A DNA stretch of 56,659 bases, counting the filler, from Barthelona sp. PAP020 (taxonomy: Eukaryota), in NCBI GenBank assembly GCA_040182905.1. It is 2 parts of 2 records of this genome, joined end to end, with 100 filler letters (N's around TTAATTAATTAA, not from the genome) between each part and the next. Parts side by side here need not be neighbours in the genome. Positions count along the whole stretch, not along the records: positions 1 to 28,356 come from JARQWU010000125.1; 1 more part is not named here. One strand, written 5' to 3'. Under the pieces are notes generated by a model. The model had not been told where the DNA came from. It was given only the letters and a program-made list of their open reading frames with translations, and did no database searches. Position numbers and translations under genes: made by a program. Positions 4,975-43,100 of the stretch are shown here, piece by piece (within the stretch, counting starts at the first letter, position 1; each line of letters begins with the position of its first letter).

Positions 4975-7900
4975 CTATATGTATGATCTAGTTTTGCTTT
5001 CGGTACTCCTATAACTCTTTTTACTCAATAAAGGAATCAAATTCTCAAGAGAATTCAAACAAAAGCATCTGTCACGAAATTCCAACCCCACAAAATTCTC
5101 ATTATTGCTGAGAATAACCACTTGCAAATTATTGTTGATATACAGAGCTGATTCTATCAAAAAGATGGTTTCTGTGTTGATTGCATCCAACACCAGCCAA
5201 AGGACATTGTTATTGAGACACTCTAAAATTTTAAGACAACGTCCGTTTGTTTCAACAAAACACGGGGCCAATTCATGCTCAGTTTGGTTAAATAACTGTA
5301 TGAAATCATTCCAACGATTCGATTCGCAGTGAATCAACACAGTTGAATTTGAATATATGGGTTTGATAAAAAAGGCGGGTAAATCTAAAGTCAAGCGGAC
5401 TTTAACAGAATCGATAACATGCATCTGAAATTTAAAACTTGAAGGTTTGTCGTTACTTGAAAACATCGTGTAAGGTTCGTTTATGTTATTGGGGCAAATA
5501 TCAATAATCAGTTTGATAACATCCTCATCCATGAGGAAATTGCTGATCGTAATTTTTTTCCCTGAGTCAATTCTATCAACTTGAGGTTCATTGGCTAGAG
5601 TAAACAGACTTCCCATTCCTGTTCCTGTTCCTGTTCCTGTCCCTCCTAAAAGTGTATTCGTGGTGATAGTATTTGATGTTCCTACACCTGAAATAGCATC
5701 TGTACCAATATTAATGTTAGAATTGGTGTTTGGAACGAATCCTGTTGTAGTCATTGCTGACGTTTGAACCGTACCATTGGCAGTTGAAGTCGTAGGACTG
5801 CTGAAAATTTTAGTTATGTTGATATCTTCAATAGTATTACTATTCATAGTCATATTAATTGGTGCTGGTGCTGGTGTAGGTGCATGAAACTCAATAAATG
5901 TACTGATGAAGCTAACTAACTCTTCAAAACAACAATTAACAGTAAGATTTCTAAAGCTCCATTCTATTGAAGGCAAACAATTAGACTGTTCCAAATAAGC
6001 CATAAGACTTTTAATTAAGGCCTTACTCAGGGGAAATATCATCTTCTTTTTGATATTTTGGGTATTTGAATGTTTTACATCTAGAAACAATAACATAAAC
6101 TTGTTTTCATCAATTTGACGATTGTATGAGATAACAATGTTGTAATACTTCCCAATAGTGCTAAACAAGATAGGTTCGTTCAATTTAATGGTACTTTCTT
6201 TCACTAATTGAGGTAAAATGAGATTGCTTAATTTATTGAAGAAATCGGGACAATAAGATAATAAAGGCTCCAAATTATTGAAAGTGTTACGAGGAATTGG
6301 GCTTATACGGTATAAAATTTCATTCATTCCGTGACTACTTTCATAAATATTGAAAGCTGAATCCATTAATAGCATTGGGATACTTGATTGAATAAAAATG
6401 TCTGACCAATTTGAATTACGATTTGAAGCAGAATAAAAGGCAGGATCAATCTCCAAAACAATCCTGGCAAAGCTATTCTTGAATTCTTGCAGATCGAATG
6501 ATTGTTCAATTATTTTATAAAAATGCCCCTTGCAATACCCTAAATACTGCAACCTTTTAATACCTTTTTCAGCATTATTGCTAAAATCCAATTGAGGCTT
6601 ACCAAACATACTAAAATCCTTATTGAACGGATTCGTTGAATTAGGAGATAAATCACTGCTAAGTTCTGTTTCTAAATTGGACATCAAATTATCTGTAGCA
6701 TTTCTTTGTTGTAAATGTTCCAACTGCCTTTGTCTAAACCCTTCATTTGAATTATAAAGAATAGATTCCAATCCCATTAAACTTAAGTTATCCATCAAAT
6801 CGTAATCTAACCAATACTTCACATTCAATTTCTTAAATCGTATGGCAGCAGCATTTTCAAATAAAATTCGTAAATCTTCTCCACCAGAACCAGATATTGG
6901 CATATGTAAATTGTTACCAGAACCCGTAGTTAACATCATGATTGGGATACACAATTGCTCAAAAATTGTAAATAAAGAATTGGCTTTTCTTTCTTCTTCA
7001 AATACACTTCGTTGTAAACAGATGCATTTGAATGAAAAAACAACGGTTATCAAAAAGAATGTTATCAAAAGAATGAGTAAAAGCGTTTGAAACATTGAAA
7101 TTTCATTCTGCCACGTGTAATTAAAATGGTAAGCTCGATAATCAGAGAGATCAGCCATGGCACTTTCAAAAGTGCTTAGAATCTCAGGTATAACCTGTTT
7201 AACTTGATTTGGATGTGTACATATATAATTTTTACCAGGATTTTGAAATAAACAATGAATATAAGTATAAACATCATTAATATCAATCGATAACGAACCT
7301 ACATGAGGATATGAAGGAATTAAGCCATAAGAAACAATTGGAAAGGGTTTGCTGGTTTCAGCAATCTCTTCAAAAATATTCCATGTCAAACAGGAATTGT
7401 ATCTATCACCAAACAATGGTAGAGTAACAATACCCAACTCATAATCTTCGAAGACTTTGATATAATCTTCAATTTGAGCAAAATAAATCATTCTACTATC
7501 AATAAAGGTGATATCTATACTATTGTGCATTGTTTGGATATACGATTGCTTCTGTGCAGTTGTGTCAATATGTTCAATAATTGAATCATAGACAACTAAA
7601 ACTTTTGTAATGCTTGGAAACAATCCTCGCAAGAAATGAATTTCTTTTGCAATGTCAATATTGTAACCAATCTTCCAATGGTTATTGTCGTTCGTATCAA
7701 TAACACTTGTGGAAAACTCAAAACTAACAAGGGTTATATTTTTTTGTAATTTCTCTTTCAATTTTGCTTGTAATTCGACACTTAATAAAGAGGAAAATGA
7801 ATCCAACGATATAATTGAATATAAATCATAATTTTTATATTTTTCATATAAAAAATTAACAGTTTCATTGAAAGGAAAATTCATGCATAATGAACAAAGA

Positions 7901-8109
7901 AATTCAGGAATGAATTTGTATCTTATATCATCATCTTTCCCCAAAGAATATTCATTTAAAGCTCCTTGTTCATAAAAATATTGATCATAATTGGATAATT
8001 TAGGTGATGAACTACTAATAATTATTACATTACGTGTTTCCAAACTAATACATACACTAAATAATGATAATATTAAAATTAATAACGTTCTATTCAAAAT
8101 AGCATTCAT
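4975..8109 (-). CDS. Membrane receptor resembling a degenerate bacterial hybrid sensor kinase (signal peptide, substrate-binding-type ectodomain, TM, 2 PAS, HATPase-like remnant, REC-like)
   Basis: N-terminal signal peptide; TM at ~7030-7085; PAS-like starts 'IFEQLCIPIMML..RILFENAAA' and 'IFIQSSIPMLLMDSAFNI'; C-terminal receiver-like 'NGRCLKILE..LWLVLDA..INNNLQVVILS'. No H-box or G-boxes seen. Confidence 0.6.
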   Translation of the reverse strand: MNAILNRTLLILILSLFSVCISLETRNVIIISSSSPKLSNYDQYFYEQGALNEYSLGKDDDIRYKFIPEFLCSLCMNFPFNETVNFLYEKYKNYDLYSIISLDSFSSLLSVELQAKLKEKLQKNITLVSFEFSTSVIDTNDNNHWKIGYNIDIAKEIHFLRGLFPSITKVLVVYDSIIEHIDTTAQKQSYIQTMHNSIDITFIDSRMIYFAQIEDYIKVFEDYELGIVTLPLFGDRYNSCLTWNIFEEIAETSKPFPIVSYGLIPSYPHVGSLSIDINDVYTYIHCLFQNPGKNYICTHPNQVKQVIPEILSTFESAMADLSDYRAYHFNYTWQNEISMFQTLLLILLITFFLITVVFSFKCICLQRSVFEEERKANSLFTIFEQLCIPIMMLTTGSGNNLHMPISGSGGEDLRILFENAAAIRFKKLNVKYWLDYDLMDNLSLMGLESILYNSNEGFRQRQLEHLQQRNATDNLMSNLETELSSDLSPNSTNPFNKDFSMFGKPQLDFSNNAEKGIKRLQYLGYCKGHFYKIIEQSFDLQEFKNSFARIVLEIDPAFYSASNRNSNWSDIFIQSSIPMLLMDSAFNIYESSHGMNEILYRISPIPRNTFNNLEPLLSYCPDFFNKLSNLILPQLVKESTIKLNEPILFSTIGKYYNIVISYNRQIDENKFMLLFLDVKHSNTQNIKKKMIFPLSKALIKSLMAYLEQSNCLPSIEWSFRNLTVNCCFEELVSFISTFIEFHAPTPAPAPINMTMNSNTIEDINITKIFSSPTTSTANGTVQTSAMTTTGFVPNTNSNINIGTDAISGVGTSNTITTNTLLGGTGTGTGTGMGSLFTLANEPQVDRIDSGKKITISNFLMDEDVIKLIIDICPNNINEPYTMFSSNDKPSSFKFQMHVIDSVKVRLTLDLPAFFIKPIYSNSTVLIHCESNRWNDFIQLFNQTEHELAPCFVETNGRCLKILECLNNNVLWLVLDAINTETIFLIESALYINNNLQVVILSNNENFVGLEFRDRCFCLNSLENLIPLLSKKSYRSTESKTRSYI

Positions 8110-12732: not shown

Positions 12733-13914
12733 TCAACTGTTGAGACCTGATACCTTGGGAGTATCAATACCATCTATTTTATCCAATTTCCTTCTTCTGT
12801 CATAACAATAATCGCGTTTGTTGACTTCATCAAAAGGTTGAAAGCATTTACTGCAATTTTTACATCCCGAGGCATATTCAATATCTTCCAACCAGATGCG
12901 AGGGAGGTCTGGTTGAAATACCAAAGGTCTAGAAAGACTGATGATGTCAGCATATCCTTCTTCAAGCAATTGTTCTGCAACAATTCCTGTTCTAATACCA
13001 CCAACAGTTAATACACATTGTCCATCACCTTTGACTTGCATCCACAATTGGGAAGCCTCTTTGTGGTATCCTTGAAGTTCAGGTTTCTTAACAAAGGCGC
13101 CAATTCTAGATGCTCCTTTCTTTAGTCCAGCAAAATTTGAGCTTGCTTCAAGACCATACAACCCAAGATCAAACAAATACTTTGCCACCTCAACAGAGCT
13201 TTCATAGGTTAGTCCATTTTCAATATTCTCCCAACAATTGACTTTAGCAAATATGGGGAAATTTGCACCGCACAACTCTCGAATACGCTCAACAATACGA
13301 GTAACAAATCGCATTCTATTTTCAAAACATCCACCATATGCATCTGTTCTCAAATTAGTAGCAGGGGAACAAAACATTGAAAGTAAAAATCCATGAGCAT
13401 GATGAAGTTGAATTCCATCAAAACCAGCCTCTTTACAACGCCTAGCAGCTTGACCAAAAGCTTCTACAAGTTCATCAATTTGTTCAACAGTTAAAACTAA
13501 TTCTTCTGGAACATTTCCTGTCTGACCCCAAGCTTCAAGACTGAATGCACTTGGAGCGACCTTTTGTTGACCAAAGAAACCACAATGAACCAATTGGCAA
13601 ATAATCTTAACATCAGAATCAATAGCTTTACATTTTTTGATCATTTCAGCATAGCCTTCAATATGCTCATCAGAATACATTGCAGATTGAGAATTGTGAA
13701 ATTCACTTCCAGGTGTAACAGCAGAAAATGAAGAAATAATTAAACCTACACCTCCTTTGGTTAAATCTACATAAACTTTTTCGAATTCTGGGCTGACACC
13801 TCCTTGTAATTTAGCACCAAAAGATTCAATACAAGAACCTTCATAAGTAGGACTCCTAGCAATTCTATTTTTAATAGTAAAATTATTTTTTAAAGTGATT
13901 GGATCAAACAACAT
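12733..13914 (-). CDS. NADH:flavin oxidoreductase / Old Yellow Enzyme family protein
   Basis: 'LFDPITL..IKNRIARSPT'; 'GGVGLII'; 'QLVHCG'; 'AGFDGIQLHHAHGFLLSMF.SP.TN.RTDAYGG..ENRMRF'; 'VGGIR'; 'SRPL..QPDLP'; C-terminal CxxCxxC..C. Confidence 0.92.
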   Translation of the reverse strand: MLFDPITLKNNFTIKNRIARSPTYEGSCIESFGAKLQGGVSPEFEKVYVDLTKGGVGLIISSFSAVTPGSEFHNSQSAMYSDEHIEGYAEMIKKCKAIDSDVKIICQLVHCGFFGQQKVAPSAFSLEAWGQTGNVPEELVLTVEQIDELVEAFGQAARRCKEAGFDGIQLHHAHGFLLSMFCSPATNLRTDAYGGCFENRMRFVTRIVERIRELCGANFPIFAKVNCWENIENGLTYESSVEVAKYLFDLGLYGLEASSNFAGLKKGASRIGAFVKKPELQGYHKEASQLWMQVKGDGQCVLTVGGIRTGIVAEQLLEEGYADIISLSRPLVFQPDLPRIWLEDIEYASGCKNCSKCFQPFDEVNKRDYCYDRRRKLDKIDGIDTPKVSGLNS

Positions 13915-14190
13915 TGAAAAAAAAATGAGATAAAAGAAAGCAACAAAGTGACAGACTTTTAAGATTCTTCTTCCTGTGAATTTTGACTTGATTTTGCTTT
14001 TGTAAAACCATCATTAATAATTGCTTTAGGTTTTGTTTCTTTGAAGGTTCTCTTAAACTTTGACAAAAAAGGAATTTTCTCTCTTTTATTTTTTGTCATT
14101 CAATTTTGCGTACAAATGAGTATTGCAGTTTCGAAACGTTACATTTTTAAAAATTTAAAGAATTTTTTACCTTTTTTGAAAAATTCAAAA

Positions 14191-15294
14191 ATGGAGATTG
14201 ATTTGTCTTCATTGAATAATGATAAAAATTACAAAGAAACAACAAAAGATGAATCGATACTTGATTTTACCAATAACATTGCCTTATTTGAAAGTGAAAG
14301 TAATAATCCATATTTTAATTTAGCTACTGAGAATTGGTTGTTACACGATGCTGATTTACCTGATCAAACATTATTTTTATGGAGAAATGAACCTGTTATT
14401 GTCATTGGAAAACATCAAAATCCTTGGAAAGAATGTAAAGTTGATAAATTATTGGAGGATGGTGTTCATTTGGCACGTAGAACATCTGGCGGTGGCACAG
14501 TATTTCACGATTTAGGAAACACAAATTTTACATTTTTGTCAAAAGCATCAAAATACGATAAAAACATCAACAATCAGATATTACTGGAGGCTATAAATGA
14601 AACCTTTGGTTTAAATGCTGTGTCTTCTGGAAGAAATGACCTTTTGGTAGATGAAAGGAAATTCAGTGGAAGTGCATTTAAAGAAACGAAAGACCGTTGT
14701 TTTCATCATGGAACTTTGTTGATTGATGTTGATATGCAAAAATTATCATCTTATTTGACACCTTCTATGGCAAAATTAAAGTCCAAGGGTACAAATAGCG
14801 TAAAATCAAGGGTTGTTAATTTGAAAGAGATAAATTCTGACATTAATCACGAAACTTTAATTAACGCTATCATGAACAAATTTTGTGACCAATATAATAA
14901 TGGAGAAGCTGTAAATGTTCAAAAACTTAGCAAAAAAACTTTGGAAAAGATCCCCGAACTAAAAAGAAGAGTTGATGAATTGAAGGACAACAAATGGATC
15001 TACGGGAAATCTCCAAGATTTGAATTTGACCTTGAAACTAGGCTTAGTTGGTGCACAATTCAACTGTTGTTTGATGTTAAAGATGGAATTATTTCTGATA
15101 TTGACATTAACACAGATGCATTAGATCCTTTATTGGTAGAGGAATTATACAGACTGTTAATAGGAATGGAATTTAATTGTGATTCCATTAAACGAGTTAC
15201 CATTTCTCCAAATCTCAATAAAAATCAGAAAAAATACATACAAGAAGCATTGGATTGGTTAATTGATACGTTACCTTCAATTTCTCAGGATTAG
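14191..15294 (+). CDS. lplA: Lipoate-protein ligase A (bacterial LplA type, with C-terminal domain)
   Basis: 'NPYFNLATE'; 'LFLWRNEPVIVIGKHQNPWKEC'; 'LARRTSGGGTVFHDLGNTNFTF'; 'GRNDL..RKFSGSA'; 'HHGTLL'; 'WIYGKSP'. Start moved from TTG 14041 to ATG 14191. Confidence 0.93.
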   Translation: MEIDLSSLNNDKNYKETTKDESILDFTNNIALFESESNNPYFNLATENWLLHDADLPDQTLFLWRNEPVIVIGKHQNPWKECKVDKLLEDGVHLARRTSGGGTVFHDLGNTNFTFLSKASKYDKNINNQILLEAINETFGLNAVSSGRNDLLVDERKFSGSAFKETKDRCFHHGTLLIDVDMQKLSSYLTPSMAKLKSKGTNSVKSRVVNLKEINSDINHETLINAIMNKFCDQYNNGEAVNVQKLSKKTLEKIPELKRRVDELKDNKWIYGKSPRFEFDLETRLSWCTIQLLFDVKDGIISDIDINTDALDPLLVEELYRLLIGMEFNCDSIKRVTISPNLNKNQKKYIQEALDWLIDTLPSISQD

Positions 15295-20886: not shown

Positions 20887-22218
20887 TTAAAACTCATCAA
20901 TACCTATACCTGTTATAACATCATCTGCAATCAAGTCTTTTCTGCTCATAAAAGTAGTGAAAAATTGTTTTTCATCCATGTTGGGCAGAAAACTAATTAA
21001 CTTCTCGTCTAATTCTTCAAAAAAGCATGGATTCAAAGAGTGTTTCATGTTTTCAAGATCTTTGATAGTCTTAATTCGTAACTGTCCACCTCCATTTAAA
21101 CAACCTTTCGGACATGCAGATATCTCAGCAAACCTCATGTTATTAATTGCTGCTTTTTGACGATGAACCCCTGTATTTTTGACTCGAAGAAACAGATTCT
21201 CCAAATCTTGAAACCCTTCAGCCAAAACAACTAATCGATCATTTGTAATGTTCAAACCCCGTTTTTTTGCTAGAGCTGACGATGAATCAAATTCCTTTTT
21301 AATATTTGTGTGTATAAATGATGCTAAAGACCCTGTGGAAGCACCTGTTCCAATCGCTAATTGATCATTAACGAAAGTAACAAGGGGCGATATATTTTCA
21401 GACTCAACATTAAGCATTGGTGTTTCCTTCAACAGATCTTCTTTGATAATATTATAAAATTCAACAGAAGTCAACACAAAGTCAATCATTTTCTTGTCAT
21501 TTCTTTGCAATTCAGGCCTGATTACATCCAACTTATGGTCATGACAACATTCAATAGCACAATGAGCGACATTATCACCATAAATAGAGTGTATCAATAT
21601 ACCATTAATAATAAGTGGGGATACAATGGGAAGAAGATCTGGAATTAAATCTTCGTGCATTTTTTCACAAAAACAAACCCAACCAGGACATTCAGAAGAA
21701 AAGACAAGATGATGCGAATTTTGGACATGTTTCAAAGTCAATTTGGCATGCAAATGATAACTCAGGGCAGAATCATTTATAATCGCATTGTATTTTCTTT
21801 CCAATATGTAACCTATTTTTAAAAAGGTTTCAGTATACGTTAGGTCTAATTGATAAGCAATTGAAATAATAGATTGGGGTGATAAAGTGACAACTAACTT
21901 TTTATTCTGTTCAATACTCTCTTTAATAAATACTGTTTCAAATTTATTTTCTGATTGTGATTCAACTAAGACACTCTCAGATGAAGTAATACATCCACTG
22001 CAAGCCATACAATCTTGTAAAGAAACTTTAATTTTTTTTTTTTCTATTACAGCTGCAGAAGAATCAATAGAATCATCACCAATTTGTAATCTTTGAGGAA
22101 TAGAATTTTGTGAATTTTTCACATCATCTTTTTTTTTTGTATCAAAAACAATACAAGTTGGTGGTACTGTTCCTAAATCATTCAAATCTGACAAGCGTAT
22201 ACCAACACCTGATAACAT
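20887..22218 (-). CDS. NAR1: Cytosolic Fe-S assembly factor Nar1/CIAO3 ([FeFe]-hydrogenase-like)
   Basis: 'IRLSDLND..PPTC'; 'KVSLQDCMACSGCITSSESVL'; 'SSECPGWVCFCEK'; 'CCHDHKLD'; 'EISACPKGCLNGGGQ'; ends in an aromatic residue (..IDEF) as Nar1 proteins do. ATG at 22218. Confidence 0.9.
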   Translation of the reverse strand: MLSGVGIRLSDLNDLGTVPPTCIVFDTKKKDDVKNSQNSIPQRLQIGDDSIDSSAAVIEKKKIKVSLQDCMACSGCITSSESVLVESQSENKFETVFIKESIEQNKKLVVTLSPQSIISIAYQLDLTYTETFLKIGYILERKYNAIINDSALSYHLHAKLTLKHVQNSHHLVFSSECPGWVCFCEKMHEDLIPDLLPIVSPLIINGILIHSIYGDNVAHCAIECCHDHKLDVIRPELQRNDKKMIDFVLTSVEFYNIIKEDLLKETPMLNVESENISPLVTFVNDQLAIGTGASTGSLASFIHTNIKKEFDSSSALAKKRGLNITNDRLVVLAEGFQDLENLFLRVKNTGVHRQKAAINNMRFAEISACPKGCLNGGGQLRIKTIKDLENMKHSLNPCFFEELDEKLISFLPNMDEKQFFTTFMSRKDLIADDVITGIGIDEF

Positions 22219-22462: not shown

Positions 22463-25400
22463 ATGAGTGAACCAAACAATAATCATGATTATCATGGTTT
22501 CGATGGAAATACTGCTGCTTCTCACATTGCCTACTTTTTCAGTGATAATGCTATCATTTATCCTATTACTCCTTCAACTCCAATGGCAGAAAAAATAGAT
22601 CAATGGTCAGCTGAAAAAAGAAAAAATTATGCAAATCAATGTGTAAGTGTTCAACAGATGGGTTCTGAAGCTCAAGCTGCTGGTGCAGTTCATGGATCTT
22701 TAGTTGCTGGTGGTTTAACTTCCACCTTTACTGCTTCCCAAGGATTGTTGTTGATGATTCCTAACATGTATAAAATGGCTGGTGAATTGTTGCCCGTTGT
22801 TTTCCATGTAGCAGCTAGATCTGTAGCAACCCATGCTTTGTCCATTTTTGGAGATCATTCCGATATTGCTGCTGCAAGAACAACTGGATTTTCTTTTCTT
22901 GCATCAACTGGTGTACAAGAAGCAATGGATTTAGCTATTGTTGCACATTTAAGTACCTTAAAATCATCTATTCCTTTTGTACATTTTTTTGATGGATTCA
23001 GAACTTCTCATGAAGTTAATGTTATCGATGTCATCCCTTATGAAAAATTGGAAACACTTCTGCCTTTGGTTTCTGAAGAAATTAAGGCTTTCCGTGATCG
23101 TGCTTTAAATCCTGAACACCCCAAAATGATTGGAACAGCTCAAACAGCTGATGTATTCTTTCAACAAGCTGAGTCTGTCAACAAATATTATGAAGCAGTT
23201 CCTGAACATACTCAATGGGCTATGGATAGGGTTAAAGAAATTACTGGACGTGAATACCATTTGTTTGATTATTTCGGTCCCAAAAACCCAAAGGTTGTAT
23301 TAATTGCCATGGGTTCTGGTGCACAAGTAATTAAGGAAACCATTGAAAATGTTGATAATGTTGGTCTTATTATTGTACGTCTTTATCGTCCCTTTTCAAT
23401 TGATCATTTTGTCGATTTATTGCCTGAAAGTGTTGAATTGATTACTGTGCTTGATAGATGCAAAGAAACAGCAGCTGTTGGTGAACCTTTGTTTGAAGAT
23501 GTCAGTAGTGCCTTATTAAGTAAGGGTAAACATATTAAGGTGATAGGTGGTCGTTATGGACTTTCTTCTCGAGATTTTGCTCCTATTCATGTCATGGGTG
23601 TTATCAATCATTCTTTTGACTATTTAGCTGGTACTTCAGTGGTAAAAGGAACCAAATTTACTGTTGGTATTATTGATGATGTGACCCATTTGAGTGTTCC
23701 AATTCCTTCTGAACCAATCAACACAGTACCTGAAGGAACCAAACAATTTGTGTTTTGGGGTCTTGGAGGTGATGGAACTGTTGGTTCCAACAAAAATGCA
23801 GTCAAAATCTTAGGGGATGAAGGAATGTTCTCTCAAGGTATGTATGTTTATGATTCTTTAAAGGCTGGATCTTTAACCGTGAGTCACATCAGGTGTGGTC
23901 ATAAGCAAATTTTTTCTCCATATGAGATTGGTGATGCTGATATTGTCTTTTGTTCTCAAGACTCTTATGTTCGTCGTTTTGCTTTATTGGACTCCATTAA
24001 GAAGAGAGGAATTTTTGTTTTAAATGCACCTTGGACGACTGCAGATGATTTCAACTTGCACGTTCCAGCAGAAATGCGTAAAATGATGGTTGAAAAGGAT
24101 CTTACAGTCTACACAATAGATGCCAGTGGTATTGCTGATAAAATTGGTTTGGGTGGAAGAACAAACATGATTTTGCAAGCAGCTTTCTTCAAGATATCTC
24201 AAGTGATTCCTGATATAGATGAAGCTGTCTCTTTATTGAAAAAAGCAGTTGTGACATCTTATGGAAAGAAGGGTCAACACATTGTTGATATGAACTTTGA
24301 AGCTATTGATCATGGTTTAACCAGTTACGTTCAAGTTCCTCTTGATCCTACTTGGTTGAATTTGAAAGACCACGTTGAATCAACCAGTTTCACACCTTAT
24401 GAAAAAACAACTTTCATTAGTGATATTTTTGACCCTTATTTCAAGAGAAGAGGTGATAGCATTCCAGTTTCAAAGTTTACTCCAGGAGGAGCAATTGAAT
24501 TAAATACTTCTGCACATTTGAAGAGAGGAATTGCTTTGAAAGTTCCTTCTTGGGATAGCTCCTTGTGTATTCAATGTAATACTTGTGGTTTTGTTTGTCC
24601 TCACAGTGTCATTAGACCATTTTTATTGACTGATGAAGAAGTTAGTGATGCTCCAGTTCCGCTTGATGTTATTAAGGCTAAAGGTCCAAAAGTTAAGGGT
24701 TTTAACTTTAAGATTCAAATTAGTCCTCTTGATTGTACTGGTTGTGGTTCTTGTGCAAACAGTTGTCCAAAAAAAGGATGTTTAACAATGGTTCCCCTTG
24801 CAGATGTTGTTGATAAGGAAGCTGAAGCTTGGAAATACGTGCGTTCATTACCTAATAAGAGTGAACAACTCGAAATTAATCGTAAGAATTATAAGAACCT
24901 TCAGTATCATCCTCATCATCTTGAATTCAATGGTGCTTGTGCTGGTTGTGGAGAAGTTCCTTATAATAAACTTGTTGCACAATTATATGGTGATAATTTG
25001 ATTATTGCGAATGCTACTGGATGTTCAACCATTTGGGCATCGTCTTATCCATTAAATGTTTATTGTACTAATGAAAAAGGTGAAGGTCCTGCTTGGGGAA
25101 ACTCATTATTTGAAGACAACGCAGAATATGGATTGGGAATGGTATTTGCAGCCAAGCAACGCCGTCAAAGATTATATGACAGAGCAAAAGAAGCTTTGGA
25201 ATTAGATATTCCTGCTGAATTGAAAACGAGTTTGAAAGAATGGTTGGAAGCTTATGACGATCGTGAGGATGCAAAGATTACTGGTAAAAAGCTTATCAGA
25301 CAGTTATTTGAACATGAAGAACTTGTTAAGAGTACACCTGTTTTGCTTGATATATTAAACGAACGCGATTGGTTAAGAAAACCAGTATTCTTCTGTTTTA

Positions 25401-28006
25401 TGGGTGATGGTGCAGCTTACGATATTGGTTATGGTGGTTTAGATCATGTATTGGCATCTGGAGAAGATATCAACATCATGATTATGGATACCGAAGTATA
25501 TTCAAATACTGGAGGACAAAAGTCAAAGGCTACTCATCTTGCAGCTCAACACAAGTTTGCTGCAGATGGTAAAAAGCTTCCTAAAAAGGAGCTTGGATTA
25601 ATGGCTATGATGTATGATAACATTTATGTGGCTTCTTGTGCAATGGGTGCATCACCTAAACAATTTATGGATTGTCTTCAAGAAGGTGTTGATTATAAGG
25701 GACCTTCTTTGCTCATGTGTTATTCTCCTTGTATTGAGCATCAAATAAAGGGCGGTATGGTCCATTCTCAAGACATTCAAAAATTGGCTGTGGACAGTGG
25801 TTATTGGATTAATTGGCACTACAATCCCCTATTGGCTGAAAAAGGAAAATCGCCAATGGTTATTGATTCTAAGGAACCTTCTGTTGATCCTGCAGAATTT
25901 TTGACTCATAACGGACGTTTCCAGAATTTGAAGAGGACATATCCTGATCAGTATGATACATTAACCGCAGAATTATTTAAATTTTTGGAAAAACGTTGGA
26001 AAAAGTATCAAGCCATGGTGATTGCTTATTCTCATTATAATGATGTCGTTCCTAAGGAAAAGAAGGAAAAAGAAGAAAAGCCCAAAAAAGAAAAGGAAGA
26101 GTCCAAGAAGGAAGAGGAAAAACCTAAAAAAGTGGAAATGCCAAGAAAAGAAAAAGAAGAAAAGCCTAAGAAAGAAAAGAAGGCAAAAGATGAAGAAAAG
26201 GGAAATGCTGCTAAATTCAGTTATCTTCCTGTTTATTATGGCTCTGAAACTGGAACTTCTGAGCAATTTGCCATCGATCTTGCCAAACTTTTGGTTGATT
26301 CAGGTATTAATTCTGAAGCTATCTCTTATGGTGAAACCACCATTTCCAAAATCAAAATGAATCCTGGAGCTGTCTTTATCATGTCTTCAACTGGTGTTGG
26401 TGATATGCCTGGTGACGCAGAAGATTTATATGAAGAATTGAGTAATGCCAAGGAAGATACTTTGTCTGGTTTAGAGTTTGGTTTGTTTGGATTGGGAGCC
26501 AAGTCTTATGATGACAGTTATCAAACTGCTCCAAAGAACTTTGAAAGAGAGTTGCTTCGTCTTAATGCTAAACCATTCATTGATCGTGGTGAAGGTGATG
26601 AAGAATGTGATGGAGGTCATGAAAAGACCTTGATGCCTTGGATTCAACAATTATTCCAAGTTGTTTCTTCTTCAACCAAACCATCAGCTTCAACTGATTC
26701 CAAGCAATTTGTCTCAATGAAACAAGAAACTTTTCCAACAATTGAAGCTATGACAAAAGTATTCCCTGTGGTGTCTGGTGCCTCTCAAATCGATATGATT
26801 GAAGAAGACATTGTTGCAGTTGGTGCGGTTGATGCTTGTGTGCGTGATTTCCATGGATATGAGACTCGTTATGGAACGTCTTACAATTCATATCTTATCA
26901 TGGATGAATCACCAGTTTTGATTGATACTGTCAAATACACTCATGCTAATGTGTTGATCAAAAACATACAAAAGATTCTGCCATTGACAGAATTGAAGTA
27001 TGTGATCATCAATCATGCAGAAATCGATCATTGCAGTGGTATTGTTGAAATTATGAAGTTAGCTCCACAAGCTGTTATTATCACAAACAAGAAGTGTCAA
27101 GAAACAATGGAGAAATTATATCCTGAGTCTGCTTCTTACACTTATGACATCATCAAAAATAAGGAAACACGTTGTTTTGGTAAGCATACATTACAGTTTA
27201 TTCTTACTCCATTATTACACTGGCCTGAAAGTATGATGTCCTTCGACATAACCACCAACACTTTGTTTTCCATGGATGGTTTTGGACAACATCGTGCTTG
27301 TGGTGTTCGTGTGGATGATCAACCTGGTGCCCCTGATTTGGCTACACATCTTAATGATCAAAAGGCATATTGGGCTAATATTCTGATGTTATACGGAAAG
27401 CAAGGTCAAAAATTGTTTAAGAGTTTGGAAGGCTTGGAAATCAAGACCATTGCCAATGCTCATGGTCTTGTTTTGCGTAATTATATTCCCCCAGTCTTAG
27501 AGAAAATCAAATCTTGGGCAACACATCAACACAGACCTCAAGTTTTCATCATGTTCGATTCTATGTGGAAAGGTACTCAAAGAATGGCTGAGGCCATCAA
27601 AGATGGTGCTTTGACCAAGGCTTTTGAAGGTGTTGAGGTTATTATTTGTTGTGCGGGACAAACTCATATCACTGATATTGTCACTGATTCTTTGGAATCT
27701 GCAGTTATGGCTATTGGTTCACCCAGATTGAATGGTTCAGTTCTTGCTTCAATTGGATCTGCTGTGACTTATTTAGGAGGGTTACAACCTGATTGGAAGA
27801 GAGATGGTGTGGCTTTTGGTACTGCTGGTTGGGAAGTTAGACAACACCAAAAGACTATGGACAAAATTGTTGAGGATGCTGGACTTGTTCTTGCTGAATC
27901 TGCATTTATTGCTCATTGGAATCCAAACGAAGATGATTTGAAGCAATGTTTCGAGTTGGGACAAAGATTGGCTGAATTAGCTATTAAAAAAGTTCAAAAA
28001 CAATAG
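22463..28006 (+). CDS. Pyruvate:ferredoxin oxidoreductase - flavodoxin - flavodiiron protein (FDP/FprA) fusion, 1847 aa
   Basis: PFO: DGNTAA, YPITPS, FTASQGLLLMIPNMYK, HFFDGFRTSHE, CIQCNTCGFVCPH, CTGCGSCANSCP, ACAGCGE, ANATGCS, GDGAAYDIG..DTEVYSNTGGQ, YSPCIEH. K/E linker at 26051-26203. Flavodoxin 'YYGSETGTSE..SSTGVGDMP..LFGLGAKSY' at ~26228-26663. FDP 'GTSYNSYLI', HAEIDH, LHWPE, SMDGFG, AHG, 'DSMWKGT', 'AFGTAGW' at ~26795-28003. No internal stop. Confidence 0.93.
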   Translation: MSEPNNNHDYHGFDGNTAASHIAYFFSDNAIIYPITPSTPMAEKIDQWSAEKRKNYANQCVSVQQMGSEAQAAGAVHGSLVAGGLTSTFTASQGLLLMIPNMYKMAGELLPVVFHVAARSVATHALSIFGDHSDIAAARTTGFSFLASTGVQEAMDLAIVAHLSTLKSSIPFVHFFDGFRTSHEVNVIDVIPYEKLETLLPLVSEEIKAFRDRALNPEHPKMIGTAQTADVFFQQAESVNKYYEAVPEHTQWAMDRVKEITGREYHLFDYFGPKNPKVVLIAMGSGAQVIKETIENVDNVGLIIVRLYRPFSIDHFVDLLPESVELITVLDRCKETAAVGEPLFEDVSSALLSKGKHIKVIGGRYGLSSRDFAPIHVMGVINHSFDYLAGTSVVKGTKFTVGIIDDVTHLSVPIPSEPINTVPEGTKQFVFWGLGGDGTVGSNKNAVKILGDEGMFSQGMYVYDSLKAGSLTVSHIRCGHKQIFSPYEIGDADIVFCSQDSYVRRFALLDSIKKRGIFVLNAPWTTADDFNLHVPAEMRKMMVEKDLTVYTIDASGIADKIGLGGRTNMILQAAFFKISQVIPDIDEAVSLLKKAVVTSYGKKGQHIVDMNFEAIDHGLTSYVQVPLDPTWLNLKDHVESTSFTPYEKTTFISDIFDPYFKRRGDSIPVSKFTPGGAIELNTSAHLKRGIALKVPSWDSSLCIQCNTCGFVCPHSVIRPFLLTDEEVSDAPVPLDVIKAKGPKVKGFNFKIQISPLDCTGCGSCANSCPKKGCLTMVPLADVVDKEAEAWKYVRSLPNKSEQLEINRKNYKNLQYHPHHLEFNGACAGCGEVPYNKLVAQLYGDNLIIANATGCSTIWASSYPLNVYCTNEKGEGPAWGNSLFEDNAEYGLGMVFAAKQRRQRLYDRAKEALELDIPAELKTSLKEWLEAYDDREDAKITGKKLIRQLFEHEELVKSTPVLLDILNERDWLRKPVFFCFMGDGAAYDIGYGGLDHVLASGEDINIMIMDTEVYSNTGGQKSKATHLAAQHKFAADGKKLPKKELGLMAMMYDNIYVASCAMGASPKQFMDCLQEGVDYKGPSLLMCYSPCIEHQIKGGMVHSQDIQKLAVDSGYWINWHYNPLLAEKGKSPMVIDSKEPSVDPAEFLTHNGRFQNLKRTYPDQYDTLTAELFKFLEKRWKKYQAMVIAYSHYNDVVPKEKKEKEEKPKKEKEESKKEEEKPKKVEMPRKEKEEKPKKEKKAKDEEKGNAAKFSYLPVYYGSETGTSEQFAIDLAKLLVDSGINSEAISYGETTISKIKMNPGAVFIMSSTGVGDMPGDAEDLYEELSNAKEDTLSGLEFGLFGLGAKSYDDSYQTAPKNFERELLRLNAKPFIDRGEGDEECDGGHEKTLMPWIQQLFQVVSSSTKPSASTDSKQFVSMKQETFPTIEAMTKVFPVVSGASQIDMIEEDIVAVGAVDACVRDFHGYETRYGTSYNSYLIMDESPVLIDTVKYTHANVLIKNIQKILPLTELKYVIINHAEIDHCSGIVEIMKLAPQAVIITNKKCQETMEKLYPESASYTYDIIKNKETRCFGKHTLQFILTPLLHWPESMMSFDITTNTLFSMDGFGQHRACGVRVDDQPGAPDLATHLNDQKAYWANILMLYGKQGQKLFKSLEGLEIKTIANAHGLVLRNYIPPVLEKIKSWATHQHRPQVFIMFDSMWKGTQRMAEAIKDGALTKAFEGVEVIICCAGQTHITDIVTDSLESAVMAIGSPRLNGSVLASIGSAVTYLGGLQPDWKRDGVAFGTAGWEVRQHQKTMDKIVEDAGLVLAESAFIAHWNPNEDDLKQCFELGQRLAELAIKKVQKQ

Positions 28007-37131: not shown

Positions 37132-40100
37132 TTAAGTGTATTTAATGACAATTGAATTTTCAAATCCAGTTTGAGATTCAATATTGAACCCACATAATCT
37201 TAATTGCAAAAATGGGACAGTTGTAACACAAGGTACTGAAGGGAAAGTATTTAAAACATCAGAAACACAAACTCTTATTTGGAAATCCAAAGTAGTTGAG
37301 TCAAAATAATTGTAGGACAGAAAACCCATCTCATTTTCAAAAGGAGAATTCAATAAAACTGTTTGCAATAATATCATACCTTCAATGCAAGTTAATAAAG
37401 ATGTGTTTTTAGGAGGGGTAAAACCTTCAGGAACCAAAATCAGATGAACATCTTTAATATTATGAACTCTCAAACTGTTCATAGCTGAAGCTTGGAAAGT
37501 AAAAAGGAAAGAACCCAAGGTATCACCAAAAACTTTTGAATGTACTGATAAATTTTTCAAATGCTTAAGAAGAGCTAAATGTCTATTTTCATCCTTCAAA
37601 GCAACGAATAATTTGTTGAAGAAATCAGTTTTCATTTCAAGAACATCTGGTACTGTTCCAAAATTATCATAGTTTATCATAACGGATGTAATACTTTCAT
37701 CATATATGTTTGGTGCCATATTGTTCCAACATTGACCATCAATCATTCTAGTCCAATAGAATGGAGAAATGTTAGCAAATAACAAAAGATTTAAAAAGAA
37801 TGCCGGGATATAATAAGGAGAAATGACCGCATTCAAAGAATTTTCCAATTTTCTTAAATCATGGAATACCATTCTTCTAACATTGTCACTCTTAATAATT
37901 TCAGATTTAAGATATGCAGACATCAGACTTTTATCATGGTCTAAAGCACAACTTTGATATTTTATTGGCTGATGAACTTTCTCATCAAAACGTTGAACGA
38001 CTTGAGTCATCTTTAATTTGATTAATTCTGCCATGTCATTTTGGTCGAATTGAGTAAACAACCTGAAAAGAGAGAAGAACATGTTATTATATTGTTTAGT
38101 CTGAGTAGAAGTGATGTTTGTTTTCACAAAGGTTGTTTTGATGTAATCTATTGTGTAATCAAATTGTTGGTCATATTTTTGCAACCAAGGTCTCAAATCC
38201 TTAATAACTAAAGAATCTTCAGGTACAGGCAATAAATTGGGAGAATTGAACAGATATTCTTTGGCATCTAGAATTAGGGAAGAAAAAATTCTCAAAAATT
38301 GGTTCAATTGTTTGGAAACAGTGAAATTTTGATAAACTAAATCAACGATCAAATCACCAAACTTGTCCAAATTTTCTGTTGACCAACAGTCTACCATAAC
38401 TGCAGACATATGATCAATAATAACTGGATTAACTACTTGATAAGTCTCATAAGCATTAACAACCTTACAAATACTGTAGAAAAACACAGCTAAAATAACT
38501 GGTTTTGCTGGTGTTACCATAGGAATATTTCGAACAGCAACAGCCAAAGCATTATAAAACAACGATTTGAAAGAAATCTCAAAAGCATAATTGTAACATG
38601 GCAAGGCAAATTGTAAAACATTCAATTCAGCTATGGCATGTTTGAATAACACAGAAGGAATACTCTCAACATTGTTACTTGATGAAAGTAAAATGACTTT
38701 TTGGAATGAAGATTTCTTGTCCATCACAAACAAAGCAAATTTGATGTGAGATTCAACATTTGGGACAACCAATGTATGAGCATCTTTTGGCAGTTTCCAA
38801 TCAAGAATTGGTATAGTTGGATCTAAATATACCGCATTTTCACTGATAGAATCTTTAAAGTGGAAAGGAACAGCAATGCATGTAACTCCACTAATTCTAA
38901 AGATAAACTCTTCTTTTTCAAAAACGCCATCAATTCTAATTGGATAGAAGAAGTGATGAGAATCTGAAGAAGAAGTCAAAACTTTCCATTGCAAAGTATC
39001 TGAAATATAACATTCAAATGCGTTACTAAAAGAACTGGGATTGATACAACAATAAATCAATAATTGTTCAAAAGAATTCATTTGACTGATACCTGGTAAA
39101 GGTTTCATATATCCTTCTGGATCGTTTAACCATTCATTCAATAACACTGGAGATTCACGAAGAATAACATTTATTTCACCAACTGCTTCAGAGGACAAAT
39201 ACGGCAAGAGGTCTTCCAAACTAACAATTTTATCTTTTAGTAATTCATCAACGCAACTAAGTTCTTTAATTCCAAAGATATCAAGGAATGCAGCTAATAA
39301 CATAGCAAATGAATGCCTTCTTCGATAATCACCCAATTTTGGCAATTGTATCGTTAAGAAATCGTTGATAAACTTCAAACCTAACTCATGCTTAGCTTGT
39401 TGACTAACATCCAAAGCTTGTAATTCTTCAATCACAGGCCCTTGTAATTTATTTGTAAGCCTAATAAATGCATTTCGAACAGACAATAAATCAGGTGCAA
39501 GATAAAATAACTCGTACATTCTACCATAGAAAACAAGTGTCGAAGTAATAACACCGCATAACTCAACTAAAGGTGTGCTCATACTTATCAATTTCTTTAA
39601 CACCTTTAAACTTTGACGACATTGAACCAACAGTTCATTATTCTCATCAATCAGATCGCGCAAACTCAATAACGTCTTTGGGATATCATCTGGAATATCA
39701 TCAATCTTTAGAGGAATTTTACTCACAGTTTTTAATACTTTTTGTTCATAATCAGTAGACATTTCCAGTAAATATGCCTCTGCTTGACACAATTGAATGT
39801 AATATTCAATCATCTTGGGTTGATCATTTTTATAAGTTTCAAACATGATCAAATTAGTGATACTCTCTTGTCTCAAAGACAAATCAATAAAAGGAAGATC
39901 ATACAATACATCGTCATAGATCAATTCTTTATCATAAATAGAAGCATGACATTCAACATAAAATCGAAATTCTTCATGAATTTTGTGAGATAATTCGTTT
40001 GTCGAATAAAAAGCCTTAATTAGTTGGAAAATAGCAGGAACATGGTCTTTATCGTCATTATTTATGTCTTTTACAACAACAACACATGGTTTTTTACATA

Positions 40101-43100
40101 ATTCAAAAATTTTCTTTGCTATCTTTGGATCAGAGTAAGAATAAACATGAATAGGCAATCCAAACATTTTAACCAAATCTTGAAGAATATTCAGAGGGTC
40201 ATAATACAACATGCTCTTGTAATGTGTTAAAGAAATAGGAATAAATTTGTCAAATCCAGTTAAAGATGCTTCAACCAATGAAATATTACGATATTTATAA
40301 GGTAACTTTGCTAAAGAACCATAAGAAGCTTCTAAATAACTCAATTGGGTTTCACCAACACTACTTTCCACAATTGATTGCTCTTCTAAAAATTGACCAC
40401 TGGCATTTGCCCTGTCTTGACCCAATCCTGTAGTTCCTGAATCTTTTTTTGAAGAATATGCTGGATCAGAGTTATCAGAATCATAAATGAGGTTATCAGA
40501 TTCTTCATCAGAGTCGATAAAATTAAAACCATCATCATCTTCATGAAGTGAATCATTATCTGAATCTGCTTCACTTTGTTGAAAATTTAACATATCTTCA
40601 GTAGCTTTCGTGCTTTCACCATCACTTTCACTTTCATCTTCATTTGAATCAGTTTTACTTTCTGTACCAGAAAAAGTCCCATCTGAATCAATATCAGAAA
40701 ACATTTCTTCAGAAACCTCATTAATATCATGCTCATCCGAAACAATGTCAAAAATGTCTTGCTCTAAAACAGAACTTGTTTGACCATGAGACATTGATTT
40801 TGTCCTGGAAATAGATTTTCTCTCAAAATCATCCCTGAAATGAAAAGCCAACTCTTCCATAGAAGGTAAAACTCCTTCTTTTATTTGGAACTTAGTGTTA
40901 TCAATGCTATTAAATCGTTTAGTCAGTGGGATAACCAATTTTTCAGGATGTGTCAAATAATATTCAGGTAACAATCTTCTTTTTACCAGATCTTTCAAAA
41001 CAAACATCAGACATTGTTCTTCCGAAAATACTGGACTGACTTGCAATTGCATATTAATAATAAAAGACAATAATGAAGCAGAAGTAATTGGAGATAAAAC
41101 AAAGTCCGATTTCTTCATATCTTCAACATTTGCACTCATTTCTTTAATTTTGCTTTGATTCAAGAAATGATGTTCAGTATCATTACTACTGGAACCACCT
41201 TGAAATAATGCCAATTGTTCATGCCATGCTCCACTAAATTTGGACAACACAACTGAAATGTCCTCTAATTTATTCATTTTCTCCTGTTCATCATTTGTAT
41301 TATCTTCAGAAGTAAATTTAGTGATTGAAAAACCATACAATTGCTGTCTTAAAACCTCAATTTTCTTTCCACCATCCTTTAACCTTTGTTCAGCTTGTAA
41401 TACTCTAGCTTTGGTAACATCAACTTGAGATTTAATTGTAGATTCATGATTCTGCAAGTCTTTTAAAGGTCTTGAATGTTTCCATTCTTCAATGATCAAA
41501 GTCATCCAATTAGCCATTAATTCTAAAACTTTATTATTTAATGATACTTGGGAAATTTCAACTAATCTGGCTCTAACCACATTAATACAATCTTCTGTCA
41601 ACAGATTATAAGATACTTGTTGTGCTTGACCACTTAATAAAGATAAATTTGTAACACTTGACTTGAATCTACGTAATAAAGCAGTACTATCACTTGTCTT
41701 GGCATTATTACTGGTTAAACAATACCAAGCTTCTAATACCCAAGTTAATGGAGGAATTGGTCGATTCCAACTCCTTAATTCAATTAAAGCTTCTTCTGAT
41801 GGTGAATATGCTAAATTAAAAATGTTTTGCAACAACTCCTTTTCACGTTTCATTATACTGTTTAGTGTGTCTTGAACTGCATTCAATTCTTGAACTGCAT
41901 TATCATGTTCTTCTTTATACTTGTTAAATTCTATACTGTAATCTTTTAATTGATCTGACAATTCCATGTACTTATGTTGTTCAATACCTAATTGACTGAT
42001 AGCATCCTTACTATTATCAATAGCTTGATTGTAAGCTTGTTCAGAATGAGAGACAGATGATCGCAAAGAAACTATCTCCTTATCTACGTGAAAGATAAAT
42101 TTGATACATTTTTCAATGTGCTTGACATGTTGAAATTCAACAACTGTCCCATTAACCAAGAAACGATAGAAATCTTCAATATAATGCTGACCTCTTCGTT
42201 CATTGAAAATAAACTTTCCATGAACATTTTCAGTGATATTAAAGAAAGCTTCACCAAAACCATCAATAGATTTTGAATGACAATCAATAATTGTATACAA
42301 ATACTTAGTTGTTTGATACCAAGATAAACCGAGATGAAAACAAATCAAATCTCTTTCTAAAGGAGACAATAACGATTCTAAAATATTCAAATTAACACTT
42401 TTCAATATTTTTGCTGGAATTTCATTATTTTCAATCATATGTTTTAATTTATGATGATATGCCAACATAATATCTGAAACAAAATAAATGGCATTCTTCT
42501 CATTATCTGCTGATTTTCTTACACGTAAACTCTTGGCTAAAATAGAAGCAACACTAACAAATTTCAATGGATCACTAATAATATCACCTCCAGCAAAAAT
42601 GACAATTTTAATTCTTTGTTTTACCATTTTTGAAAAGAATTCTGGCCCTTTTACTGTACTTTCAGAAGTATTCTTTATAATCTCTTCAGTAAAGGTCATT
42701 CCACTGTTTTTAAATTGTTCATGTAAGGCAATAGCTCCAAAAGAATTCTTGTAAGTGGTATTAACAACTTGAAAAAGTCTACCAATGTTTTCAGGTGTTA
42801 ATTCAATATACTCTTTAAAAACATCCTTGGAAATTTCAATGACCAAATATCGATCAAAGCTAGTGAAATGATTAAGATTTGCCATAAAACTGGAGCCTGC
42901 AGCAACACGCTTAATCTTAAAGGATTTATGAGTTGTCTCAAAGAATTTCATGATGATTTCATATTCAGCTTTGGTCGTTCTTTCACTGATTGTTTCAAAC
43001 ATAAATACTGATGTATCAATCAAAAAGAACATACCAAACACTAGTATTTGAAATAAGAAGGTTTGACTCAAATAAAAATTGCTTTGAATCAAATCATACA

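Follow-up and report, generated by a model that had tools for sequence, protein, structure and literature searches.

A putative surface receptor of the protist Barthelona sp. PAP020 that combines a bacterial ABC_sub_bind-type ectodomain with a probably kinase-derived, non-catalytic tail

The window analysed here is a stretch of 56,659 nucleotides from the eukaryote Barthelona sp. PAP020 (assembly GCA_040182905.1), in which two parts of two records are joined by filler. Its minus strand carries P0001, an open reading frame (ORF) of 1044 codons for which the earlier note had proposed descent from a bacterial hybrid histidine kinase. The frame contains no stop, an outcome with a chance probability of about 3e-37 at the local base composition, and its codon-usage score is higher in frame (0.159) than in the other two frames (-0.003 and 0.045); the same score is 0.20 to 0.30 for 11 training genes and 0.15 to 0.20 for three other unassigned ORFs. 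The intact 1044-residue frame described previously therefore stands, and all motifs quoted with it were found in place, including the codon of Asp975 at 5185-5187. Hydropathy shows just two peaks, at residues 3-21 and 342-360.

We built profiles for the ectodomain (57 rows), PAS (131), DHp (76), ATP-binding (99), and receiver domains (84), each filtered at 70% identity, and scored them end to end (glocal) against P0001, with shuffled sequences, reversed sequences, and real proteins of the window as controls. Because most of the bacterial references belong to Desulfobacterota and spirochaetes and a hybrid kinase served as the seed, architecture counts drawn from them are biased. The resulting feature map is as follows:

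4975..8109, minus strand: P0001, intact 1044-amino-acid ORF, predicted single-pass type I membrane protein (frame, codon use, hydropathy)
8044..8109, minus strand: predicted signal peptide, residues 1-22 (hydropathy only, peak 2.2 at residues 3-21)
7105..8043, minus strand: ectodomain, residues 23-335, ABC_sub_bind-type (PF04392-like; profile homology)
7030..7086, minus strand: predicted transmembrane (TM) helix, residues 342-360 (hydropathy 2.79)
6922..7020, minus strand: signalling helix with the first helix and strand of a first PAS domain (PAS1), residues 364-396 (z 5.0 and 3.7, family spacing)
6436..6921, minus strand: rest of the putative PAS1, residues 397-558, broken by insertions (z 1.0; halves z 1.7 and -1.6)
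6049..6417, minus strand: second PAS-like domain (PAS2), residues 565-687 (z 3.8)
5884..6027, minus strand: likely the end of DHp helix 2 and helix 1 of the ATP-binding domain, residues 695-742, without an H-box (z 2.6)
5575..5874, minus strand: Thr/Asn/Gly-rich low-complexity insertion, residues 746-845 (composition, Gly-Thr codon repeat)
5374..5562, minus strand: likely degenerate HATPase strands, residues 850-912, glycines of G1, lid, and G2 absent (z 3.3)
5017..5340, minus strand: likely pseudo-receiver, residues 924-1031 (z 2.5)

It is well supported by profile comparison that the ectodomain is homologous, end to end and in a family-specific manner, to the sensor domain of bacterial ABC_sub_bind-type proteins. 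HMMER matched the ectodomain profile over residues 85-242 (P 4.8e-6), and the glocal score of z 6.3 was reached by 0 of 300 shuffles and 0 of 88 other window segments and was obtained again when the profile was run on the whole protein. A profile built independently from 20 stand-alone ABC_sub_bind proteins found the same register (z 4.7), four 20-row subsamples of the fused sensors gave z 5.2 to 7.0, and in HH-align the full 57-row set scored 25, with 22 the highest score among 60 shuffles. Two further families of type I binding proteins did not match (Peripla_BP_6, 30 rows, z 0.1; Peripla_BP_4, 11 rows, z -0.9), so that we reject a LIV-type or sugar-type binding-protein origin; eukaryotic flytrap families were compared via Pfam only.

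The match extends through the membrane. Run on the whole protein, a profile reaching from the ectodomain to the start of the PAS domain aligned to residues 23-396 with z 8.1 (0 of 300 shuffles), scoring -26 against -85 +/- 7 for shuffles, -85 for the reversed sequence, and -66 for the best of 26 other window segments. Even with ectodomain and TM helix excluded, the stretch behind the membrane matched with z 5.0 on residues 361-420 and z 3.7 on residues 361-1044 (0 of 500 shuffles each). The PAS domain starts 353 residues past the start of the ectodomain in a register set by hand, and the mode in bacteria is 352 to 355. What had been read by eye as an ABC-substrate-binding-type ectodomain followed by one TM helix is thus upheld by profiles and hydropathy alike. 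The ectodomain is nevertheless extremely diverged: 11 of 32 conserved columns are kept and 21 changed, the consensus is matched at 46 of 317 positions, and the last 60 residues align poorly. Such divergence without any stop would point to long-lasting constraint on the frame. Separately, Cys362 and Cys364 just inside the TM helix (7018-7026, minus strand) are candidate palmitoylation sites, and the five cysteines of the ectodomain could form disulfides.

Among 49 bacterial carriers of this ectodomain (a biased sample, left from 51 rows after removal of one stand-alone and one truncated protein), a PAS domain comes next in 39, an ATP-binding kinase domain is present in 35, and a receiver in 23; a hybrid layout with two PAS domains occurs in 5 of the 51 sampled sensors. 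The kinase-less carriers, 13 of 14 of which were scanned, have GGDEF (3), SpoIIE, HD, sigma-54 activator, or GAF domains (1 each), and EAL and HisKA_2 domains also occur among those 13. Downstream of its TM helix, P0001 was previously described as having two PAS/PAC-like units. Of these, PAS2 has moderate support as a local segment (0 of 300 shuffles and 2 of 268 other segments as high), and it is also where the PAS profile fits best on the whole protein, but with z 1.4 there; of PAS1, the first helix and strand are supported, and the remainder of that unit is not.

The region behind PAS2 would correspond to the kinase core. Its start, the DHp/ATPase junction, is recovered as a local segment (as high in 2 of 300 shuffles and in 7 of 404 other segments) and gives z 0.9 on residues 366-1044, and the full DHp profile does not score on P0001 (z 0.6). 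From the last PAS domain to the ATPase domain there are at least 82 residues in 29 of 29 bacterial references and 33 to 37 in P0001, a spacing about 45 residues short, which suggests that the His-bearing hairpin has been deleted and not merely mutated, provided that the placement of the first ATPase helix is right. Residues 746-845 were correctly described before as rich in Thr, Gly, and Asn (23% Thr, 12% Asn, 12% Gly, with a short Gly-Thr codon repeat); two look-alikes inside this insertion had been overlooked, a G2-like GxGxG at 829-833, which sits at the end of the short codon repeat, and a loose G1-like sequence at 804-810. The proposed HATPase-like strands fare better in the register 850-912, where the score is matched by 2 of 500 shuffles and 0 of 352 other segments and persists after masking of G/N/D/P columns (z 2.8); this segment was picked by hand and is lost in a search of the whole protein. 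The receiver-like end is likewise a partial match: 4 of 300 shuffles and 16 of 281 other segments score as high on this hand-picked segment and neither half is significant, while Asp975 (after strand 3) and Ser1001 (after strand 4) fall on conserved receiver columns, given the weak alignment. The Asp of the first strand (with a Glu one position on), the Pro, the Gly, and the Lys-Pro of receivers are lost.

The catalytic residues of a histidine kinase are missing as well. A regular-expression scan found no H-box pattern in P0001 (the strict pattern itself matched only 16 of 51 references), and the only histidines within residues 600-750 are 680 and 742; the pair of N-box asparagines is absent in either register of the ATPase domain, and no DxGxG (G1) was found by pattern scan. 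In the references, these positions are nearly invariant: the H-box His in 99% of 76, the N-box Asn pair in 100% of 99, the G1 and G2 glycines at 99% to 100%, and likewise the first-strand Asp and the Lys-Pro of 84 receivers. Pattern scans and profile registers therefore agree with the absence of H-box, N-box, and DxGxG noted from inspection, and canonical His-Asp phosphotransfer by P0001 appears very unlikely in any reading. GGDEF and EAL motifs are also absent from the protein. The redox sensing that had been suggested as one possible function found no supporting feature in P0001.

Scored as an ordered chain, the tail gave the best result with the canonical order of PAS, junction, kinase strands, and receiver among all 24 orders, and the canonical order was also the best of 6 for the three-part set. 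The four-part chain reached z 2.5 to 3.9 and was exceeded by none of 88 and none of 94 real or reversed segments; the three-part chain reached z 2.3 (matched by 3 of 150 shuffles and by 6 of 76 real or reversed segments) and z 3.2 with two PAS domains. Tail segments were picked by eye and several chains were tried, and these z values are uncorrected for that choice. The kinase strands and the receiver, weak alone, are moderately supported as an ordered set by these comparisons.

Structure prediction and database searches added leads of lower confidence. AlphaFold without an alignment reached pLDDT 33 for the whole protein and 39 for residues 916-1036; on the whole-protein model, Foldseek returned nothing at E 0.001 and VIA-align nothing at Z 8, and both were uninformative about a two-lobed type I fold of the ectodomain. 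The receiver region of the full model (pLDDT below 50) has an alternating strand-helix pattern that was not reproduced when residues 916-1036 were modelled alone, and VIA-align on this low-confidence model listed CheY-like chains at Z 4.9 to 5.4 (best with a root-mean-square deviation of 3.0 over 89 aligned residues) alongside STAS-containing proteins at Z 5.0 to 6.0 and a phosphodiesterase at Z 6.4. An Atlas feature search with all of P0001 retrieved ABC_sub_bind, PAS, and histidine-kinase clusters at 0.76 to 0.80, and one with residues 845-1044 retrieved small bacterial proteins at 0.84 to 0.85, including a cluster of which half bear receivers; all of these lie below the tool's 0.9 level and serve as leads only. 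No relative of P0001 was found in a collection of 5.8 billion proteins (lengths 30 to 1827), among 1.84 billion protein representatives, in metagenome contigs, genome contigs, or plasmids, or in a sequence search of the PDB (best E 0.86), and its pairwise scores to all bacterial references are below 1 bit. Its exact sequence is absent from the protein collection, as are those of 5 of 7 neighbours. The five built profiles had no other match under E 0.07 among 439 frames of the window, within which P0001 is a single-copy orphan.

P0001 lies among eukaryotic genes. Its neighbours encode an ABCA-type transporter, a DEAD-box helicase, a WD40 protein, a papain-family protease, a proteasome subunit, and a fusion protein of pyruvate:ferredoxin oxidoreductase (PFO), and 2 of the 7 neighbours looked up are present in a eukaryote protein set, so that the host can be taken as a eukaryote and likely as an anaerobic one. 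Bacterial contamination is unlikely with the transporter gene 59 bases away and the helicase gene, present in the eukaryote protein set, at a distance of 182 bases. We also considered a separate origin of the 3' end of P0001, where the GC content at third codon positions (GC3) is 0.40 in the last 200 codons vs 0.25, and rejected it because most other genes of the window rise at their 3' ends too (11 of 14, 4 of them at p<0.05, with P0001 the most extreme). Across the window, the last 200 codons are richer in GC3 than the upstream part in 12 of the 15 ORFs tested, 5 at p<0.05.

With slightly better than even confidence, we read P0001 as a bacterial hybrid histidine kinase that was gained by lateral transfer and has been kept as a non-catalytic receptor. 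A kinase origin of the tail, taken by itself, seems quite probable to us. Lateral transfer from a bacterium is likely because the front end has a bacterial distribution. Such a receptor would sit at the cell surface, bind a ligand, and produce its output via a partner. A small solute would close the two-lobed ectodomain; three solved stand-alone PF04392 proteins, listed as solute-binding proteins, contain Trp, Tyr, or Phe (PMC10443332). The movement would then be relayed by the TM helix and the conserved signalling helix to the PAS units, and the now inactive ATPase and receiver folds would offer a eukaryotic partner a docking surface that can be shown or hidden, much as the ethylene receptors of plants do for CTR1 and EIN2. 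The protein would thereby signal by a change of shape in place of phosphate transfer. We favour a receptor over its rivals because the signalling helix is kept and the tail is long and intact.

Several results weigh against this reading. At the front end, the HMMER P value of about 5e-6 corresponds to only about E 0.1 over a Pfam-sized library, HH-align with 18 sensors gave a probability of 0.6% (E 0.09), and a reciprocal search of 101 genomes with the ectodomain as query retrieved no family member, its sole match being unrelated (a MurC ligase by eye). Pfam assigned no family to P0001 (E 0.1) or its segments (for the ectodomain at E 10, speed filters on), and neither did NCBIfam. In the tail, local HMMER searches with the PAS, DHp, ATPase, and receiver profiles found nothing, and none of the tail segments, all chosen by eye, is significant alone on the whole protein, where the HATPase strands at 850-912 are not recovered. 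Among the chains, kinase strands with receiver reach z 0.5 on their own, and the five-part version that includes DHp reaches z 1.3. Finally, the best four-part chain put the kinase half on the insertion (ending at 863) and not on 850-912, so that its score may be partly compositional.

Weak matches on hand-picked segments are what one would also see if P0001 were a chimera, with a real bacterial front end (ectodomain, TM helix, and PAS) joined to a tail that is not kinase-derived, such as another alpha/beta output (e.g., STAS-like) or an unrecognised eukaryotic domain. The tie of STAS-containing and phosphodiesterase folds with CheY-like chains on the low-confidence model and the variety of other outputs among kinase-less bacterial carriers speak for it. 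We nonetheless find a chimera rather unlikely given that the canonical domain order scores best, that Asp975 and Ser1001 lie on conserved receiver columns, that the protein has no GGDEF or EAL motif, and that the spacing from the strand that ends at 912 to the receiver-like strand is 12 residues, compared with 18 to 28 in the references. Alternatively, the protein may be kinase-derived and no longer signalling, either preserved at the surface for solute binding or adhesion or simply drifting. Here the large insertions interrupting PAS1 and the ATPase domain, the altered conserved columns of the ectodomain, and the lack of a close relative in any collection searched all fit, and the last of these also counts against a maintained receptor. 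Yet the frame has stayed intact in spite of extreme divergence, the signalling helix holds the pattern and spacing of its family, and 680 cytoplasmic residues are retained, which makes a relic of this kind unlikely in our judgement.

That P0001 is still an enzyme, with the Gly-rich stretch as a real ATP lid (loose G1 at 804-810, G2-like sequence at 829-833) and able to bind ATP or act as a Ser/Thr kinase, we regard as highly improbable. The best-scoring alignment of the ATPase profile does use this stretch, and diverged eukaryotic kinases with gained Ser/Thr activity are described in PMC6324907. However, the alignment over the lid (z 1.2 to 1.3) is no better than composition-matched shuffles and falls to z 0.1 to 0.2 once G/N/D/P columns are masked, while the 850-912 register keeps its score under the same masking; both N-box asparagines are missing whichever register is used, and the GxGxG is located where the short codon repeat ends. 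On these grounds we do not accept the insertion as a genuine ATP lid.

If the non-catalytic receptor is real, a bacterial hybrid kinase for solute sensing may have become, in an anaerobic protist, a surface receptor without any catalysis. A flytrap-type eukaryotic receptor would then have arisen independently from the ABC_sub_bind family, perhaps sensing amino acids or cues from bacteria that serve as prey or partners, and perhaps standing for a hidden class; we put this forward tentatively, as possible rather than probable. A functional P0001 would be a case of a bacterial sensor connected anew to eukaryotic signalling once its phosphotransfer motifs were gone, and its sensor domain is one that we did not find reported in eukaryotes. 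Lineages scored as having no two-component sensors may hold degenerate ones, and the ectodomain is a concrete screening target through which the cues perceived by a free-living anaerobic protist could be sought. The significance is limited by the single orphan copy, the lack of a structure, and the familiar precedents for dead histidine kinases.

Elsewhere in the window, positions 22463-28006 (plus strand) encode a fusion of 1847 amino acids that joins PFO, a flavodoxin domain of the P450-reductase type, and a complete flavodiiron protein, and that would couple pyruvate oxidation directly to the reduction of O2 or NO. Head to head with it, 244 bases apart, lies a gene for a protein with the C-terminal domain of the Fe-hydrogenase large subunit (20887-22218, minus strand), which we take to be Nar1-like. 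Positions 12733-15294 hold a flavin oxidoreductase (Oxidored_FMN) and a lipoate-protein ligase with a bacterial-type C-terminal domain, which may represent further transfers, and an ORF of 5336 amino acids (37132-53142, minus strand) has a Pfam match limited to one borderline IQ motif. The PFO-flavodiiron fusion was not found in the excerpts of the literature searched, among which PMC4989108 describes a different fusion of a flavodiiron protein with ferredoxin.

The closest known counterparts of P0001 are the bacterial hybrids with the order ABC_sub_bind (PF04392), TM helix, PAS, HisKA, HATPase_c, and REC (e.g., P0002 and P0004), with which it shares the ectodomain, the TM helix, the signalling helix, the register of the PAS start, and likely the overall domain order. 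It differs from them in being eukaryotic, in its roughly 15% identity to the ectodomain consensus, in its long insertions, in lacking the H-box, the N-box, DxGxG, and the Lys of the receiver, and in a His-bearing domain that is apparently half deleted. No eukaryotic sensor kinase with an ABC_sub_bind domain was found in the literature searched, and supplementary domain tables, which lay outside that search, could bear on this point; "ABC" is absent from the main text of PMC6324907, and "binding protein" was not found in passages of PMC6944256. The survey of eukaryotic histidine kinases in PMC6324907 required a minimum of two out of three Pfam domains, and a protein like P0001 would therefore be missed. 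Dead histidine-kinase receptors, in plants and as DivL, and transferred hybrid kinases are already known, and it is the sensor type of P0001 that we did not find reported for a eukaryote in the literature searched.

Among the known cases, the ERS2-type ethylene receptors, phytochromes, and chloroplast sensor kinase of plants are diverged histidine-kinase homologues with reported Ser/Thr activity (PMC6324907; PMC6566107). Like P0001 in the reading favoured here, they are eukaryotic receptors of two-component origin that now work with partners which are not response regulators; they differ in having other sensor domains and in being detectable by Pfam, whereas P0001 has a binding-protein ectodomain and escapes Pfam. 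DivL of Caulobacter is a histidine-kinase chassis with PAS domains that works allosterically and has neither kinase nor phosphatase activity (PMC4211667), but it is bacterial and docks DivK~P with a full DHp domain, whereas P0001 seems to have lost most of its DHp domain and carries a dead receiver of its own. The laterally acquired PAS-HK-REC kinases of Mastigamoeba balamuthi, placed by a phylogenetic tree (PMC8136499), resemble our reading of P0001 in that bacterial hybrid kinases have moved into an anaerobic protist. Those kinases remain recognisable and are described in the excerpts with no mention of an ectodomain, while P0001 would be a membrane receptor with a degenerate core.

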